DNA from: a virus
Taxonomy: Duplodnaviria > Heunggongvirae > Uroviricota > Caudoviricetes
DNA: 46,003 bases
Direction: 5' to 3' (one strand)
IMG/VR virus record: IMGVR_UViG_2562617057_000011
Coordinates: 1 to 46,003 of that record
In this document: positions 18,805 to 23,669 of the stretch, one piece after another
Layout of the letters: the number at the start of each line of letters is the position of its first letter
Numbering within the stretch: position 1 is the stretch's first letter
Notes under the pieces: model-generated
Databases searched by the model: none
The model's input: the letters and a program-made list of their open reading frames with translations, nothing else
What the model was told of the DNA's origin: nothing
Made by a program: the position numbers and the translations under genes

Positions 18805-19863
18805 ATGAAAAATACTGTATAAATAAACAGTATTGATTTAATCAACGCTGATTGCCTGCATTTTATTCAGTCCCTGCCTGATGATTCCATTGACCTGATT
18901 GTTACAGATCCGCCGTACTTCAAGGTGAAACCCAACGACTGGGACAATCAGTGGAAAGAGGACGAAGATTACCTTAAGTGGCTGGACCACTGTCTGGCCC
19001 AGTTCTGGCGGGTGTTGAAACCTTCCGGAAGTCTTTACCTGTTCTGTGGTCATCGCCTGGCATCTGATATCGAAATCATGATGCGTGAACGCTTTAATGT
19101 GCTGAACCACATTATCTGGGCGAAGCCGTCCGGGCGCTGGAACGGGTGCAACAAGGAAAGCCTGCGGGCGTATTTCCCCGCCACAGAGCGCATTCTGTTC
19201 GCGGAACATTATCAGGGGCCGTATCGTCCAAAAGATGATGGCTATGAGGCGAAGGGCAGGGCACTGAAACAGCATGTGATGGCTCCGCTGATTTCTTACT
19301 TTCGTGATGCGCGTGCGGCTCTGGGGATAACGGCAAAACAGATTGCTGATGTCTCAGGAAAGAAAAACATGGTGTCGCACTGGTTCAGTGCCAGCCAGTG
19401 GCAGTTACCGAACGAGGATGATTACAGAAAACTTCAGGTGCTGTTTGCCCGGGTGGCAGAAGAGAAACATCAGCGGGGTGAACTGGAAAAGCCACATCAC
19501 CAACTGGTCAGCACATACAGTGAGCTGAACCGGCAGTATGCCAGCCTGCTGGAAGAGTACAAATCCCTGCGGCGTTATTTTTCCGTATCGGCAGCCGTTC
19601 CTTATACGGATGTCTGGACGCACAAGCCTGTGCAGTATTATCCGGGCAAACATCCCTGTGAAAAACCGGCAGATATGTTGCGGCAAATGATTACCGCCAG
19701 CAGTCGTCCGGGTGACCTGGTTGCAGATTTCTTCATGGGGTCCGGTTCGACAGTCAAAGCAGCGATGGCGCTGGGGCGTCGTGCAATTGGTGTCGAGCTG
19801 GAGGCTGAACGTTTTGAGCAGACCGCAAGAGATGTACAGAATTCAATCAGAAAGAGAGAGTGA
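18805..19863 (+). CDS. beta-class DNA amino-methyltransferase (N6-adenine or N4-cytosine), reading frame interrupted by TAA at codon 6; possibly a pseudogene
   Basis: DPPY motif near the N-terminus and FMGSGST SAM-binding motif near the C-terminus; ATG 18805 then MKNTV, TAA at 18820-18822, frame continues INSIDLINADCL..DPPY; ORF track starts at GTG 18925, after DPPY. Confidence 0.7.
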
Positions 19864-19903
19864 TATTGCTGAATTTATTCTGTAACGTTATCATTATGTT
19901 ATC

Positions 19904-19979
19904 GGCCCTTTAGCTCAGTGGTGAGAGCGAGCGACTCATAATCGCCAGGTCGCTGGTTCAAGTCCAGCAAGGGCCACCA
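19904..19979 (+). tRNA. tRNA with anticodon CAT (Ile2-like, lysidine-type; Met not excluded), CCA encoded
   Basis: 76-nt cloverleaf folded by hand; very similar to E. coli ileX as recalled; anticodon loop CTCATAA. Confidence 0.85.
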
Positions 19980-19980
19980 A

Positions 19981-20054
19981 CCACCACTAGCTCATCCGGA
20001 TAGAGCATCAACCTTCTAAGTTGACGGTGCGAGGTTCGAGTCCTCGGTGGTGGG
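19981..20054 (+). tRNA. tRNA-Arg, anticodon TCT
   Basis: Cloverleaf with acceptor CCACCAC/GTGGTGG, anticodon loop CTTCTAA, T-loop TTCGAGT; no encoded CCA. Confidence 0.8.
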
Positions 20055-20059
20055 CCAGC

Positions 20060-20135
<76 letters not shown>

Positions 20136-20138
20136 TAT

Positions 20139-20213
<75 letters not shown>

Positions 20214-20827
20214 GCGAGATTTGAGACGAAGGTTGTTATTTGCACTGACACAATATTGTGTGGGAATGTCTGACTCCTTACCATCTCCTGTTCTGTGATG
20301 TTGTTTTGTTGCAGTTCCAGTGCTCTTTTTTCAGCACCAGAATGGTGCATTGTCGGTCAGGTTACGTAGTGAACCTCTGGCAGGGGACTGATGATTCATC
20401 ATTCTGGTGTTGTAAATATCTCTTCGGACAACTTACAAAATATTCTAAGCAAACCCCGGGAACACACTCTTAACTGCCTTGGCTGGCGGTTTTTTGTACA
20501 GCGCTCGGTATGTGTGAGCTGGAAATCAGATTTTGCATGGACTGGAATCATGCTGTTATTTAGGGGCGAAGAACTGGCTTTTTCTTCCGCCTTCTCACCA
20601 GTAACGATTAGAAAAATAATGAAATGCCCCCCTCCGGGGAGGAGGACCGTAGAAAAAAGGACCCGCCAGCAAAAACATTGGGGATGAACAGCTTTCGCTA
20701 CTCAGATTGCTGGCGGGTAAAGTTCCTCATGAATTAAGAATGCTACGCGATCTTTTTTAATGGAAATGAAAATTATTGTCAATTAGTCGTGCGTGTTTTT
20801 TCATACAATATTGGTAAAGGTGATTCA

Positions 20828-20860
20828 GGCCATCAGAGTTTTGCTGATGGCCTTTTTTCT
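20828..20860 (+). terminator. intrinsic terminator upstream of the lysis genes (tR-prime-like)
   Basis: GGCCATCAG-AGTTTTG-CTGATGGCC hairpin followed by TTTTTT, about 35 nt before the holin start. Confidence 0.65.
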
Positions 20861-20894
20861 TTCCGATAGCACAGGTCTGTCGGGGGGGCGGGAT

Positions 20895-21110
20895 ATGTAT
20901 CAGATGGAAAAAATATCAACAGGCATTGCCTACGGCACCTCCGCCGGCAGTGCCGGCTACTGGTTTTTGCAGTGGTTGGATCAGGTCAGTCCATCACAGT
21001 GGGCTGCGATTGGTGTGCTGGGAAGTCTGCTTCTGGGGCTTCTGACTTATCTGACGAATCTGTATTTCAAAATAAGAGAAGACAAGCGTAAGGCTGCGCG
21101 GGGAGAGTAA
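20895..21110 (+). CDS. S: class II holin (phage 21 S-type pinholin), 71 aa
   Basis: Sequence matches the recalled phage 21 S protein ([39 protein letters not shown]...); dual-Met start MYQM. Confidence 0.9.
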
Positions 21111-21114
21111 TTCA

Positions 21115-21645
21115 ATGACACAAAACTATGAACTGATTGTGAAAGGGATCCGCAATTTTGAGAATAAAGTTGCGGTAACTTTAGCGTTACGGGACAAAAA
21201 ACGCTTTGACGGTGAAATTTTTGACCTGGACATCTCGCTGGACCGTGTTGAAGGTGCCGCGCTGGAGTTTTATGAGGCAGCGGCCAGAATGAGAATCAGA
21301 CAGGTATTCCTGGATGTTGCTGCCGGGTTATGTGAAGGGGATGAGCAGTCGCCGGAAAAGCGCCCCATAATTTTAGAGGCGCAGAATGTGTGGATAACCT
21401 ACAAAGGAAAGCTACCGGGAAGAATTACTGGTTCTCTGAAGACGCCACCGACGGCATTGCGGTCAGAAAAAGATGATATTGAATCGCCCATTGAAAAACT
21501 GGAGAAAAAATTGTCGGTGCTGATTCCTTCTGAAGATGAAAAAAAACGCCGCGATGAGCAGTTTGCGGCGTTTTACGATTATTGCATTGAAGTTACTCGC
21601 AGGAATTTTGTGAAGATTTTTGAGGAGGGTAAATCTCTTCAGTAA
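21115..21645 (+). CDS. hypothetical protein inserted between holin and endolysin, 176 aa
   Basis: ORF with GGGGAGAG Shine-Dalgarno starting 5 nt after the holin stop; no family recognised. Confidence 0.55.
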   Translation: MTQNYELIVKGIRNFENKVAVTLALRDKKRFDGEIFDLDISLDRVEGAALEFYEAAARMRIRQVFLDVAAGLCEGDEQSPEKRPIILEAQNVWITYKGKLPGRITGSLKTPPTALRSEKDDIESPIEKLEKKLSVLIPSEDEKKRRDEQFAAFYDYCIEVTRRNFVKIFEEGKSLQ

Positions 21646-21859
21646 GCTTAATGGCGGACGCTGCAATTAATTCAGGAAGGTCCGCAAGGTCATCTGTCAG
21701 TGGATATGATGAAAAATCGGCGGCAGTTCTGTTAAGAAGCGCTTTAACTAATTCCTTTTCCTTCTCCGGCAACAAGTTGATTAGAGCTACGACTGCTTGC
21801 CTGAGTGCGATTAAATCAGCAAAAGTTTGTTTTGGTAGATTTGTGTAATCCGTAGTCAC
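21593..21859 (-). CDS. possible acidic small protein, 88 aa, GTG start, convergent with the 176-aa gene
   Basis: Protein-like acidic helical sequence, but GTG start and a 53-bp 3' overlap with the convergent gene. Confidence 0.3.
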   Translation of the reverse strand: MTTDYTNLPKQTFADLIALRQAVVALINLLPEKEKELVKALLNRTAADFSSYPLTDDLADLPELIAASAIKLTEEIYPPQKSSQNSCE

Positions 21860-21966
21860 CTCTGTGTTTATCAGATTGACATCCTCCTCCCGCCAGTGCC
21901 CATCACTGGCGAGGTAAGATTTAACATATCCGGGGATTTGAAGCCGATAAATCCTGATAAATATCC

Positions 21967-22500
21967 ATGAACGTAAAAATCAGATATGGCCTGTCGGCTG
22001 CCGTTCTGGCACTGATTGCTATCGGTGCGCCTGCGCCTGATATTCTCGACCAGTTTCTGGATGAAAAAGAAGGTAACCACACTACGGCATACCGCGATGG
22101 TTCCGGCATCTGGACCATCTGTCGGGGTGCCACGATGGTGGATGGTAAACCCGTTTTTCCCGGTATGAAACTGTCGAAGGAAAAATGCGACCAGGTTAAC
22201 GCCATTGAACGTGATAAGGCGCTGGCATGGGTGGAGCGCAATATTAAAGTACCACTGACCGAACCACAAAAAGCGGGTATAGCGTCATTTTGCCCCTATA
22301 ACATTGGCCCCGGTAAGTGTTTCCCGTCGACGTTTTATAAGCGGCTGAATGCCGGTGATCGTAAGGGCGCATGCGAGGCGATTCGCTGGTGGATAAAAGA
22401 TGTTGGGCGCGATTGCCGCATACGTTCAAATAACTGCTATGGACAGGTTATTCGTCGTGACCAGGAAAGCGCATTAGCCTGTTGGGGGATAGATCAATGA
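21967..22500 (+). CDS. R: SAR endolysin (T4-lysozyme-like muramidase with N-terminal signal-anchor-release domain), 177 aa
   Basis: Hydrophobic Gly/Ala-rich N-terminus; catalytic E-D-T arrangement ([20 protein letters not shown]); follows a pinholin. Confidence 0.9.
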
Positions 22501-22964
22501 GCAGAGTCACCGCGATTATCTCCGCTCTGGTTATCTGCATCATCGTCTGCCTGTCATGGGCTGTTAATCATTACCGTGATAACGCCATTACCTACAAAGA
22601 GCAGCGCGACAAAAACGCAAGAGAACTGAAGCTGGCGAACGCAACCATTACTGACATGCAGCAGCGCCAGCGTTCTGTTGATGCACTCGATGCTAAATAC
22701 ACGAAGGAGTTAGCTGATGCGAAAGCTGAAAATGATGCTCTTCGGCGCAAGCTTGATAATGGTGGTCGGGTGCTCGTCAAAGGAAAATGCCCTGTGCCAG
22801 CCTCAGCCAAAACCTCCAGCGCCTCCGGCATGGGCAATGATGCCACCGTCGAACTCTCTTCAGTTGCTGGACGAAACGTTCTCGGTATCCGGGACGGAAT
22901 TATCCGCGACCAAACAGCACTGAGAACGCTTCAGGAATACATCAATACGCAATGCCTGAATTAA
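22497..22964 (+). CDS. Rz: spanin inner-membrane subunit Rz (i-spanin), 155 aa
   Basis: N-terminal transmembrane helix, coiled-coil periplasmic part; ATGA overlap with the endolysin stop. Confidence 0.85.
22717..22923 (+). CDS. Rz1: spanin outer-membrane lipoprotein Rz1 (o-spanin), embedded in Rz in another frame, 68 aa
   Basis: Lipobox VVGC, proline-rich mature part, AAGGAG Shine-Dalgarno; fully nested within Rz. Confidence 0.8.
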
Positions 22965-23005
22965 TCCCTCTGTATCAAAAACGAACTCAATTTGTTGGAT
23001 AGTGA

Positions 23006-23317
23006 ATGAAAATTTATATTGCCGGGCCAATGACGGGATATGAGAACTTTAATCGTGACGCCTTTAATAAAGAGGCAGATCGTTTGTCACGACATGGTCA
23101 CTCTGTCTTGAATCCAGCCACTTTGCCTAATGGTCTGACACAACGTGAATACATGGATATTTGCTTTGCAATGCTTCGTTGTGCGGATGCTATTTTGATG
23201 CTTCCTGGCTGGAAAGCGTCTGCTGGAGCAACTGCTGAGTATCATTACGCATACAAGATGGAGATGCCGGTATTCACTACGCTGAATTACCCGCCAGCTT
23301 GTTCCTCTGCAGTATAA
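23006..23317 (+). CDS. nucleoside 2-deoxyribosyltransferase-like (DUF4406-type) protein, 103 aa
   Basis: N-terminal MKIYIAGPMTG motif and conserved C-terminal LPGW..S.GA..E motif. Confidence 0.6.
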   Translation: MKIYIAGPMTGYENFNRDAFNKEADRLSRHGHSVLNPATLPNGLTQREYMDICFAMLRCADAILMLPGWKASAGATAEYHYAYKMEMPVFTTLNYPPACSSAV

Positions 23318-23669
23318 AAATCTCTTTGTTTCTCGTGTGCGATCGTGGTCGCTCGCTAAATTCCGCGCTGCATCGTCGCCGTATTTCCGCATTAACTATG
23401 ACCGTAGCCCGACGGGGAACTCCTTCTGCGCGAGTGTGCGGGAATAATCAAAAACGATGCACACCGGGTTTTTACCGCGTTTATGGTTCGCGGGTTTGTC
23501 CCTCATGCTCGCCAGTCCTGTGCGGGGGTGGAAGAAACAGGACACTTACACTGATTCTTGTGGGTACGATGCTATTCCTTTCTGGATTATCCCGATGTCA
23601 TTCATGCAGGGCGCTGTATCAGACGTTCGTCATGGCTGTCAGGCTGACGGGTCCTCCCGGTGGGGTGGC

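Follow-up and report, generated by a model that had tools for sequence, protein, structure and literature searches.

Gene content of the lysis cassette

The 46,003-nt stretch of DNA analysed here (the window) is an E. coli lambdoid prophage, and its 1.9-kb lysis cassette is 100% identical to that of E. coli RMDEC332. The features of the cassette are collected in Table 1. The holin (PF04971, 121.4 bits, with further matches to phrog_9876 and to phrog_20, 'holin') is named 'class II holin family protein' by PGAP in the identical genome. It carries the dual-start motif, with M1 and M4 as possible starts (MYQMEK...), and no Lys lies between the two starts here (MYQM), the corresponding residues in relatives being MKSM. 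The endolysin (PF00959, 84.9 bits) is rich in Gly and Ala and weakly hydrophobic at its N-terminus (KD19 peaks at 1.88, at residue 9) and has, by direct inspection of the sequence, the catalytic motif E35-x8-D44-x5-T50; with the domain, the N-terminal segment and the catalytic motif that characterize R21-type SAR endolysins, it is predicted to be one of them. The Rz spanin gene and an embedded Rz1-like ORF follow.

Between the holin and the SAR-type endolysin lies an ORF for a 176-aa protein. Its presence there had been pointed out in an earlier sequence-only reading of this DNA, and both the ORF list and the Pfam matches agree with it. The ORF begins 4 nt after the holin stop codon, on the same strand, so that its co-expression with lysis, also claimed in that reading, may fairly be assumed to occur through co-transcription in the late operon. 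The 321-nt gap between this ORF and the lysozyme gene is occupied by an 88-aa ORF on the opposite strand (the reverse ORF), and the two ORFs share the 53 bp at their 3' ends (21593-21645). An Rfam scan of 19800-23600 at E<=1 returned only four tRNAs and a match to GcvB that was dismissed as chance (18 bits, against a gathering score of 42).

Table 1. Features of the lysis cassette and of its ydfR-lysozyme interval (positions of the window)
Feature	Position	Strand	Basis
S21-type class II holin (pinholin type, predicted), 71 aa	20895..21110	+	PF04971 E 1.5e-35
YdfR-family (DUF1327) gene, 176-aa long form	21115..21645	+	ATG start; ORF list, PF07041, phrog_2091
DUF1327 core, aa 1-112	21115..21450	+	alignment; AF2 model
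C-terminal extension, aa 113-171, predicted helical or coiled	21451..21626	+	alignment, DNA homology
Reverse ORF as listed, 88 aa from GTG	21593..21859	-	phrog_2572 E 8e-53
Low-GC insert, ~262 bp	21627..21888	no strand	homology breaks on both sides; GC 0.43
GAGGTGA, Shine-Dalgarno sequence for the ATG of the reverse-ORF family	21856..21862	-	sequence inspection
Segment upstream of the lysozyme gene, common to Stx phages	21889..21955	no strand	DNA homology
SAR-type endolysin (predicted), T4-lysozyme family, 177 aa	21967..22500	+	PF00959 E 7e-24
Rz spanin	22497..22964	+	PF03245 E 2.4e-30; phrog_13; coordinates from PGAP
Rz1-like ORF embedded in Rz	22717-22923	+1 frame	VVGC lipobox, Pro-rich tail

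The YdfR (DUF1327) family

The 176-aa protein matches the Pfam family DUF1327 (PF07041) with an E-value of 4.4e-40 (136.2 bits, cut-off 25), the match spanning residues 1-112 of the protein and positions 1-92 of the 93 in the profile. It is also matched over its full length by phrog_2091 (E 1.6e-103), and a 100% identical NCBI protein, named 'YdfR family protein', occurs on 463 contigs. The gene lies where members of the family are found, directly 3' of a PF04971 holin gene and 5' of a lysozyme gene in a lambdoid lysis cassette. By these matches, the 176-aa ORF is more than a chance ORF and encodes a long form of the YdfR/DUF1327 family. The gene family, its position in the cassette and the exact protein are already known from public databases.

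The gene order in the Qin prophage of E. coli K-12 is essQ (holin), ydfR, rrrQ (lysozyme) and rzpQ. The order holin-ydfR-lysozyme is also present in phages mEp460, 2H10, PhiR5_1, Stx2-converting phage 86 and YYZ-2008, in O157-type prophages, and in all 80 of the 80 IMG/VR loci retrieved, and many Stx phages also carry a YdfR-family gene at the holin-lysozyme position. Of 5426 complete E. coli genomes, 4031 contain DNA of the N-terminal part of the gene, in up to nine copies each. Among 50,697 sequenced phage records, DUF1327 is carried by 101, all of them E. coli lambdoid or Stx phages, as against 569 records that match the whole cassette. The family is a small, narrow one, with only 73 members in an exhaustive search of 1.84 billion cluster representatives; a 3128-aa match from this search, a repetitive G2F/Rib protein, was dismissed as compositional.

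A YdfR-family gene is therefore an optional but standard resident of the S21-type cassette, and not an unusual insertion. The sequence-only reading had considered holin and endolysin genes to be normally adjacent, which holds for most of the sequenced phages but not for E. coli prophages, where ydfR commonly lies between them. The same reading saw the gene as an unusual cargo insertion, a view contradicted by its canonical position in K-12 Qin, mEp460 and many Stx phages. It had also named, as grounds for abandoning the idea, that homologous phages might carry the gene as a standard lysis accessory, and this is essentially what is found. As the holin-lysozyme position in E. coli lambdoid prophages is where the family normally sits, the finding, although real, is an ordinary one.

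Domain organization of short and long forms

In an alignment of 20 family members, a conserved core of ~112 residues is followed by variable C-termini. The short YdfR forms are 103-116 aa in length (the commonest cluster having 1129 members), and the long forms have 176, 183, 211, 268 and 296 aa. The core is modelled by AF2 as three beta strands and a helix (residues 5-72), followed by a conserved PIILEAQNVWITYKGKLPGRITGSLKTPP segment; pLDDT is 58-76 per 10-residue block over residues 1-70 of the 176-aa protein, and helices at residues 125-174 are modelled with low confidence. The protein has no membrane segment (maximum KD19 of 0.83) and no signal sequence. Its N-terminal domain is under purifying selection, with a dN/dS of 0.28-0.39 and 70 of 175 changes synonymous (expected fraction 0.26, p = 4e-5). 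Among 55 distinct sequences, most have the 176- or 183-aa form intact, and these forms are found in viable phages; in several prophages the YdfR-family gene is interrupted by IS elements or frameshifts.

YdfR of K-12 Qin (b1555, P76160) belongs to the same Pfam family and occupies the same holin-lysozyme position. The window protein shares 77% identity and 92% similarity with it over residues 1-74, the part of K-12 YdfR that is reported to bind RNase E (PMC13232886). The K-12 protein has 103 aa and diverges after about residue 80; the stop codon of its gene overlaps the lysozyme start and no reverse ORF lies behind it, whereas the window has the full 112-aa core, a 64-aa extension predicted to be helical, and the 321-nt gap with the reverse ORF. 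The other long forms (183 aa in 2H10 and O157-type prophages, 211 aa in PhiR5_1, 268 aa in Stx2-86 orf5, and 296 aa in P0065) agree with the window protein in the core and in how the C-terminal extension begins (...EKLE...KKRRDEQFAAFYDYC...). This extension is common to the 183-, 211- and 296-aa forms and to proteins with other N-termini, and the C-terminal segment of the window protein (...EKLEKKLSVLIPSEDEKKRRDEQFAAFYDYCIEVTRRNFVKIFEE) is likewise found behind other N-termini. The 183- and 211-aa forms have the same insert and the same reverse ORF as the window, the 183-aa form containing seven residues (GSVADLN) that are absent from the window form. The 268- and 296-aa forms have a further C-terminal domain and no phrog_2572 ORF.

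A Foldseek search of the 176-aa model against the PDB gave no match at E<=0.001, and a sequence-profile search of the PDB with both ORFs gave nothing below E 0.09. Neither ORF matched an NCBIfam or PADLOC profile at E<=0.01. Of the profile and structure searches proposed in the sequence-only reading, the former were thus informative (DUF1327 and phrog_2091, and phrog_2572 for the reverse ORF), while the latter gave no structural match in the PDB.

A low-GC insert at the 3' end of ydfR

DNA homology to the longer ydfR forms stops at 21626, inside codon 171 (the left break, as seen against L096). Homology to Stx phages restarts at 21889 (the right break), and homology to K-12, mEp460 and the 296-aa form at about 21951-21961. 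The DNA between the two breaks has a GC content of 0.43, compared with 0.50-0.51 in the lysis genes. This insert supplies the last five codons (GKSLQ) and the stop codon of the 176-aa ORF, and also approximately codons 1-77 of the reverse ORF together with its ribosome-binding region; the 296- and 268-aa forms fill the whole gap. The insert appears to have taken the place of the 3' portion of a longer ydfR gene, which agrees with the PGAP flag on an identical ydfR copy ('incomplete; missing C-terminus'). As to direction, we infer from the homology breaks only that the long form is ancestral and was subsequently truncated.

Nucleotide diversity over 21315-21975 is 0.011-0.045, compared with 0.05-0.22 in the holin and lysozyme genes, the low values being due in part to sampling, since the loci had been picked for matching the reverse ORF best; a search of 5.8 billion proteins nevertheless gave hardly any full-length relatives under 85% identity. 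Pairwise dS does not exceed 0.16 in the module and is 0.3-1.3 in the flanks. Dual coding was rejected as the cause of this conservation, the overlap being 53 bp and the low-diversity valley ~650 bp. Structured RNA was also rejected, since folding of the two strands of the insert gave nothing unusual (z-scores of -1.05 and -0.52). The pattern points to a young module that spread by recombination among otherwise diverged cassettes. The module is carried by 376 complete E. coli genomes and, at full length, by eight phage records, including viable phages. The segment between the insert and the lysozyme gene that is common to Stx phages contains a perfect 8-bp hairpin at 21891-21911.

The reverse ORF and its start codon

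The 88-aa product of the reverse ORF would be acidic (pI 4.57, with 13 D+E and 8 K+R and a net charge of about -5). Its residues 4-88 align to positions 2-86 of the 86 in the phrog_2572 profile, and it is 84-98% identical to E. coli hypothetical proteins; by its match to this profile it, too, is more than a chance ORF. Phrog_2572 has 18 matches among 5.8 billion proteins. Identity exceeds 85% in almost all of them, and almost all come from E. coli or Shigella, one match being a Salmonella fragment.

In the relatives, the ORF has 86 codons beginning with ATG-GAT-TAC (MDY(T/P)NLPKQ), and this ATG, which corresponds to codon 3 of the window ORF, lies 5 nt after the GAGG of the GAGGTGA sequence. 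The ATG is present in ~50 of 55 distinct related sequences; four other distinct sequences share the ACG of the window, where position 21852 of the + strand is G and not the A of the consensus. Phages 2H10 and PhiR63_1 carry the ATG allele, and strains RMDEC332 and CFSAN029787 the ACG allele. The family-equivalent part of the window ORF is thus 21593-21853 (86 codons), with ACG at 21853-21851 as its first codon, and the family's combination of an ATG with a Shine-Dalgarno sequence is absent from the window. The GTG that was listed as the start (21859-21857) lies inside GAGGTGA and is CTG in 19 distinct relatives that retain the ATG. By comparison with these relatives, the canonical start of the reverse ORF is lost in the window. 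ACG is a very poor initiator codon. As a result of the change from ATG to ACG, the reverse ORF is probably untranslated, or barely translated, in the window. PGAP annotates a 'hypothetical protein' in genomes with the ATG and makes no annotation of the reverse ORF in the window-identical genome. In the sequence-only reading, the coordinates, acidity and 53-bp overlap of this ORF were correctly described, but its GTG start has to be given up.

Support for the coding status of the reverse ORF in its relatives is marginal. Among recurrent alleles, 11 of 24 changes are synonymous (expected fraction 0.28, p = 0.047), and the amino-acid changes are conservative (L/V, L/I, E/D, Y/F and L/F), with a mean BLOSUM62 score of 0.0 compared with -0.54 expected. 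The dN/dS is 0.37-0.7, with a Fisher p of 0.054 for the most diverged pair. A 65-aa ORF on the + strand (21651-21848) scores equally well, its wobble positions being common to the reverse frame, and the attempt to tell the two frames apart by their substitutions failed for this reason.

The reverse ORF is modelled by AF2 as a three-helix bundle (helices 8-27, 30-48 and 56-74; pLDDT of the best model 72), followed beyond residue 74 by a tail that is not helical. Because only this tail lies in the older ydfR sequence (up to 21626), the 53-bp overlap looks, on the model, like an incidental by-product. No sigma70-like promoter site with at least 9 of 12 matches was found in the 440 nt upstream, where manual inspection yielded only candidates matching 7 of 12 positions, and a terminator scan found none. 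The ORF has no Pfam match, and a Foldseek search of its model against the PDB gave none at E<=0.001. The DUF1823 (PF08853) label was rejected for the reverse ORF of PhiR5_1 (15.3 bits against a cut-off of 25; E 0.023), and the window ORF has no match to DUF1823 at E<=0.1.

Minus-strand ORFs are also found in the ydfR-lysozyme slot of other phages. Stx2-86 has orf6 (phrog_1853) there, and phiSTEC1575-Stx2k has another; the two have no similarity to the window ORF or to each other. In Stx2-86 the same ~65-nt segment with the hairpin lies upstream of its unrelated minus-strand ORF.

Function of YdfR-family proteins

Several phage proteins target host RNase E, including T4 Srd, T7 gp0.7 and phiKZ Dip, of which T4 Srd binds the N-terminal half of the enzyme. 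If the result for K-12 YdfR described below carries over, these would be functional analogues of the window protein and not homologues, and no sequence or fold similarity was found between YdfR and RNase E binders of this type. In contrast to Srd, gp0.7 and Dip, the ydfR gene would be expressed late, from the lysis cassette, and not early. A further difference is that few transcripts responded to over-expression of YdfR (PMC13232886).

The sole experimental work on the family is that of Gopel et al. (RNA Biol 2026; PMC13232886) on K-12 YdfR. In a two-hybrid assay, an interaction with Rne 1-597 was seen for YdfR and also for its N-terminal 72 residues by themselves, and the full-length protein scored with Rne 1-597 only (PMC13232886). 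Strep-YdfR co-purifies Rne1-598 and also DNase-resistant nucleic acid, carriage of RNA by a contaminant not being excluded by the authors (PMC13232886). Over-expression of YdfR changed few transcripts and left growth unaffected, and RNase E binding is reported only for the 103-aa K-12 protein (PMC13232886). The 77% identity to K-12 YdfR suggests that the N-terminal domain of the window protein may also bind RNase E or RNA.

From these data, and from the position and strand of the gene, the 176-aa protein would be a small accessory protein of the cytoplasm, its gene being transcribed as part of the late operon. Its conserved beta-beta-beta-alpha N-terminal domain would most likely bind the catalytic half of host RNase E and/or RNA, and would act on RNA turnover late in infection and not on the holin-endolysin-spanin machinery. 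An insert of ~260 bp and low GC content would have truncated a longer ydfR form, providing the last five codons and the stop, and would have brought in the phrog_2572 reverse ORF, the frame of which, past its last helix, would run into the older ydfR sequence until the first stop. With ACG in place of ATG, this reverse ORF would be silent or barely translated in the window. Taken as a whole, this account of a YdfR accessory protein with a role involving RNase E or RNA, a truncating insert and a start-less reverse ORF is somewhat more probable than its negation.

Alternative explanations

The sequence-only reading had offered two roles for the 176-aa protein, a lysis regulator or a late-expressed effector, of which the latter fits the only experimental data on the family (PMC13232886). 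As a regulator, the protein would tune the triggering of the holin, or the release or translation of the SAR endolysin, and thereby set the timing of lysis. The gene lies within the cassette and almost certainly shares its transcript, the family was found only beside S21-type holins in every locus examined, and the overlap of ydfR stop and rrrQ start in K-12 (ATGA) suggests translational coupling to the lysozyme; furthermore, a genetic screen, as cited by Gopel et al., tied ydfR to envelope integrity (PMC13232886). The envelope phenotype of a ydfR deletion could nevertheless be a polar effect on the lysozyme gene. Further points against a regulator of this kind are that the protein has no membrane segment or signal sequence, that the gene is missing from most sequenced phages with the same holin and lysozyme type (101 against 569 records) and has been disrupted in several prophages by IS elements or frameshifts, and that the C-terminus and the lysozyme spacing vary freely (genes overlapping by 4 bp in K-12 and 36, 55 or 321 nt apart elsewhere). 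A lysis regulator is thus improbable, and we favour, with moderate confidence, a late cytoplasmic accessory protein that may bind RNA or RNase E. Less improbable, though still unlikely, is that the locus is neutral baggage, with the 176-aa ORF a functionless truncated remnant and the reverse ORF a gene in no phage at all, but a mere 'shadow' frame of a young, little-diverged insert. The PGAP flag of a missing C-terminus would fit a remnant, the module is too young for clear purifying selection, and the reverse ORF belongs to the very narrow phrog_2572, is without a promoter, a terminator, a Pfam, NCBIfam or PADLOC match or a structural neighbour, and has lost its start codon here, with no other visible decay. 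The constraint on the DUF1327 domain and the intact state of the 176- and 183-aa forms in most distinct sequences, including those in viable phages, argue against such a remnant, and the conservative amino-acid changes, the ATG and Shine-Dalgarno sequence of the relatives and the moderately confident three-helix model argue against a mere shadow frame.

The reverse ORF could also be a working moron in the window, with a promoter of its own active in the lysogen and a GTG or ACG start, its protein or antisense transcript aiding the lysogen or dampening leaky lysozyme expression. Phage morons such as lambda bor and lom are small, independently acquired genes of different base composition in or beside late operons, and the reverse ORF resembles them in its discrete, insert-like boundaries, its lower GC content, its orientation opposite to the late operon and its presence in a minority of comparable cassettes (376 genomes, compared with 4031 that have ydfR N-terminal DNA); the unrelated minus-strand ORFs annotated in the same slot of Stx2-86 and phiSTEC1575-Stx2k, and the ~65-nt upstream segment with its hairpin in common with Stx2-86, would fit as well. 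Unlike morons, however, it has no identifiable promoter (no sigma70-like site reaching 9 of 12 matches in the 440 nt upstream) or terminator, and its canonical start codon is lost; no separate Shine-Dalgarno sequence serves the GTG, many relatives have CTG in its place, and RNA folding is unremarkable (z-scores of -0.5 and -1.05). A functioning moron in the window is accordingly very doubtful. A broader proposal would make the interval a conserved minus-strand slot, in which the ~65-nt leader or promoter with its hairpin (21889-21955) drives swappable cargo for the lysogen, combined with a DUF1327 modulator of RNase E that links RNA decay to lysis. Candidate cargo would be phrog_2572 in the window, phrog_1853 in Stx2-86 and possibly the third ORF in phiSTEC1575-Stx2k, and, if the proposal were true, the cargo or an antisense transcript would benefit the lysogen or restrain leaky expression of the lysozyme. 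We regard this combination as speculative and improbable.

Implications

Overall, what the sequence-only reading observed at this locus is confirmed, and its interpretation is partly supported. The only mildly novel point is that a slot beside the lysozyme gene repeatedly holds unrelated small ORFs on the opposite strand. For annotation, the start of the reverse ORF is the ATG at codon 3, lost here, rather than the GTG; the label 'DUF1823' found in some phage records has no support; and behind the PGAP pseudogene flag on this copy of ydfR there is a real exchange of its 3' end. About three quarters of complete E. coli genomes carry DUF1327, and the sole functional lead for the family is the binding of RNase E or RNA reported in 2026 (PMC13232886). 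The long forms, together with viable phages such as 2H10, would provide a natural system in which to follow this lead during lytic growth.

Flanks of the lysis cassette

The four tRNA genes that precede the lysis cassette (table) resemble a tRNA cluster found in Stx-type late regions. Their anticodons are CAT, TCT (Arg), TGT (Thr) and TCC (Gly), and the CAT tRNA is assigned to Ile by PGAP but to Met by ARAGORN. The GC-rich hairpin and T-run that follow may constitute a late-operon terminator of the tR' type, read through by the Q antiterminator. The holins of many relatives begin with MKSM, the same dual start as in phage 21, whereas the holin of the window begins with MYQM and has no basic residue between its two Met codons, a difference that could alter the antiholin/holin balance. 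At the other end of the cassette, related cassettes carry different cargo 3' of Rz (for example PerC, YlcI/YnfO or a TonB_C protein) in place of the DUF4406-domain gene of the window.

Features in and around the lysis cassette (window positions unless a comparison locus is named; L098, Stx2-converting phage 86; L100, phiSTEC1575-Stx2k)
Feature	Position	Strand	Location
Four tandem tRNA genes	19904-20213		Upstream of lysis cassette, 3' of DNA methyltransferase gene
GC-rich 10-bp hairpin with TTTTTTC (candidate terminator)	20827-20853	+	~40 nt 5' of holin start codon
Holin dual-start motif MYQM	20895-20906	+	
Three-codon mini-ORF, ATG TCA ATC TGA	21871-21882	-	Immediately 3' of GGAGGAGG
Conserved ~65-nt segment	21889-21955; L098 2001-2067		Upstream of lysozyme gene
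Perfect 8-bp hairpin	21891-21911		Inside ~65-nt segment
DUF4406-domain gene	23006-23317	+	3' of Rz
orf6, phrog_1853	L098 1636-1950	-	Annotated in slot after DUF1327 gene
Unclassified 90-aa ORF	L100 2111-2383	-	Annotated in slot after DUF1327 gene

Variation in ydfR and the adjoining slot

The commoner long form of YdfR has 183 aa (loci L086, L002 and others); compared with it, the 176-aa form has a 21-nt in-frame deletion (at 21505/21506) that takes out GSVADLN, one heptad of the predicted helical region. The long-form gene is broken by IS elements in several prophages (loci L016, L091 and L097, the element belonging to the IS3 family in the latter two) and frameshifted in L013 and L067.

The slot between ydfR and the lysozyme gene holds minus-strand ORFs that are mutually unrelated in the window (the reverse ORF, phrog_2572), Stx2-86 (orf6) and phiSTEC1575-Stx2k. 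The mini-ORF, located 17 nt upstream of the family start of the reverse ORF, is kept in most relatives. The conserved segment 5' of the lysozyme gene is also present in Stx phages without the phrog_2572 ORF, and in Stx2-86 a TTTTT run comes after its hairpin on the minus strand; short-ydfR cassettes (e.g. K-12, mEp460) lack the segment.

No variant has a recognisable Shine-Dalgarno sequence at the lysozyme start codon (region 21945-21969 in the window). The lysozyme start codon of K-12 overlaps the ydfR stop codon as ATGA (L085 5055-5058), which suggests that lysozyme translation is coupled to that of ydfR, and the 321-nt gap between the two genes in the window would break coupling of this kind.
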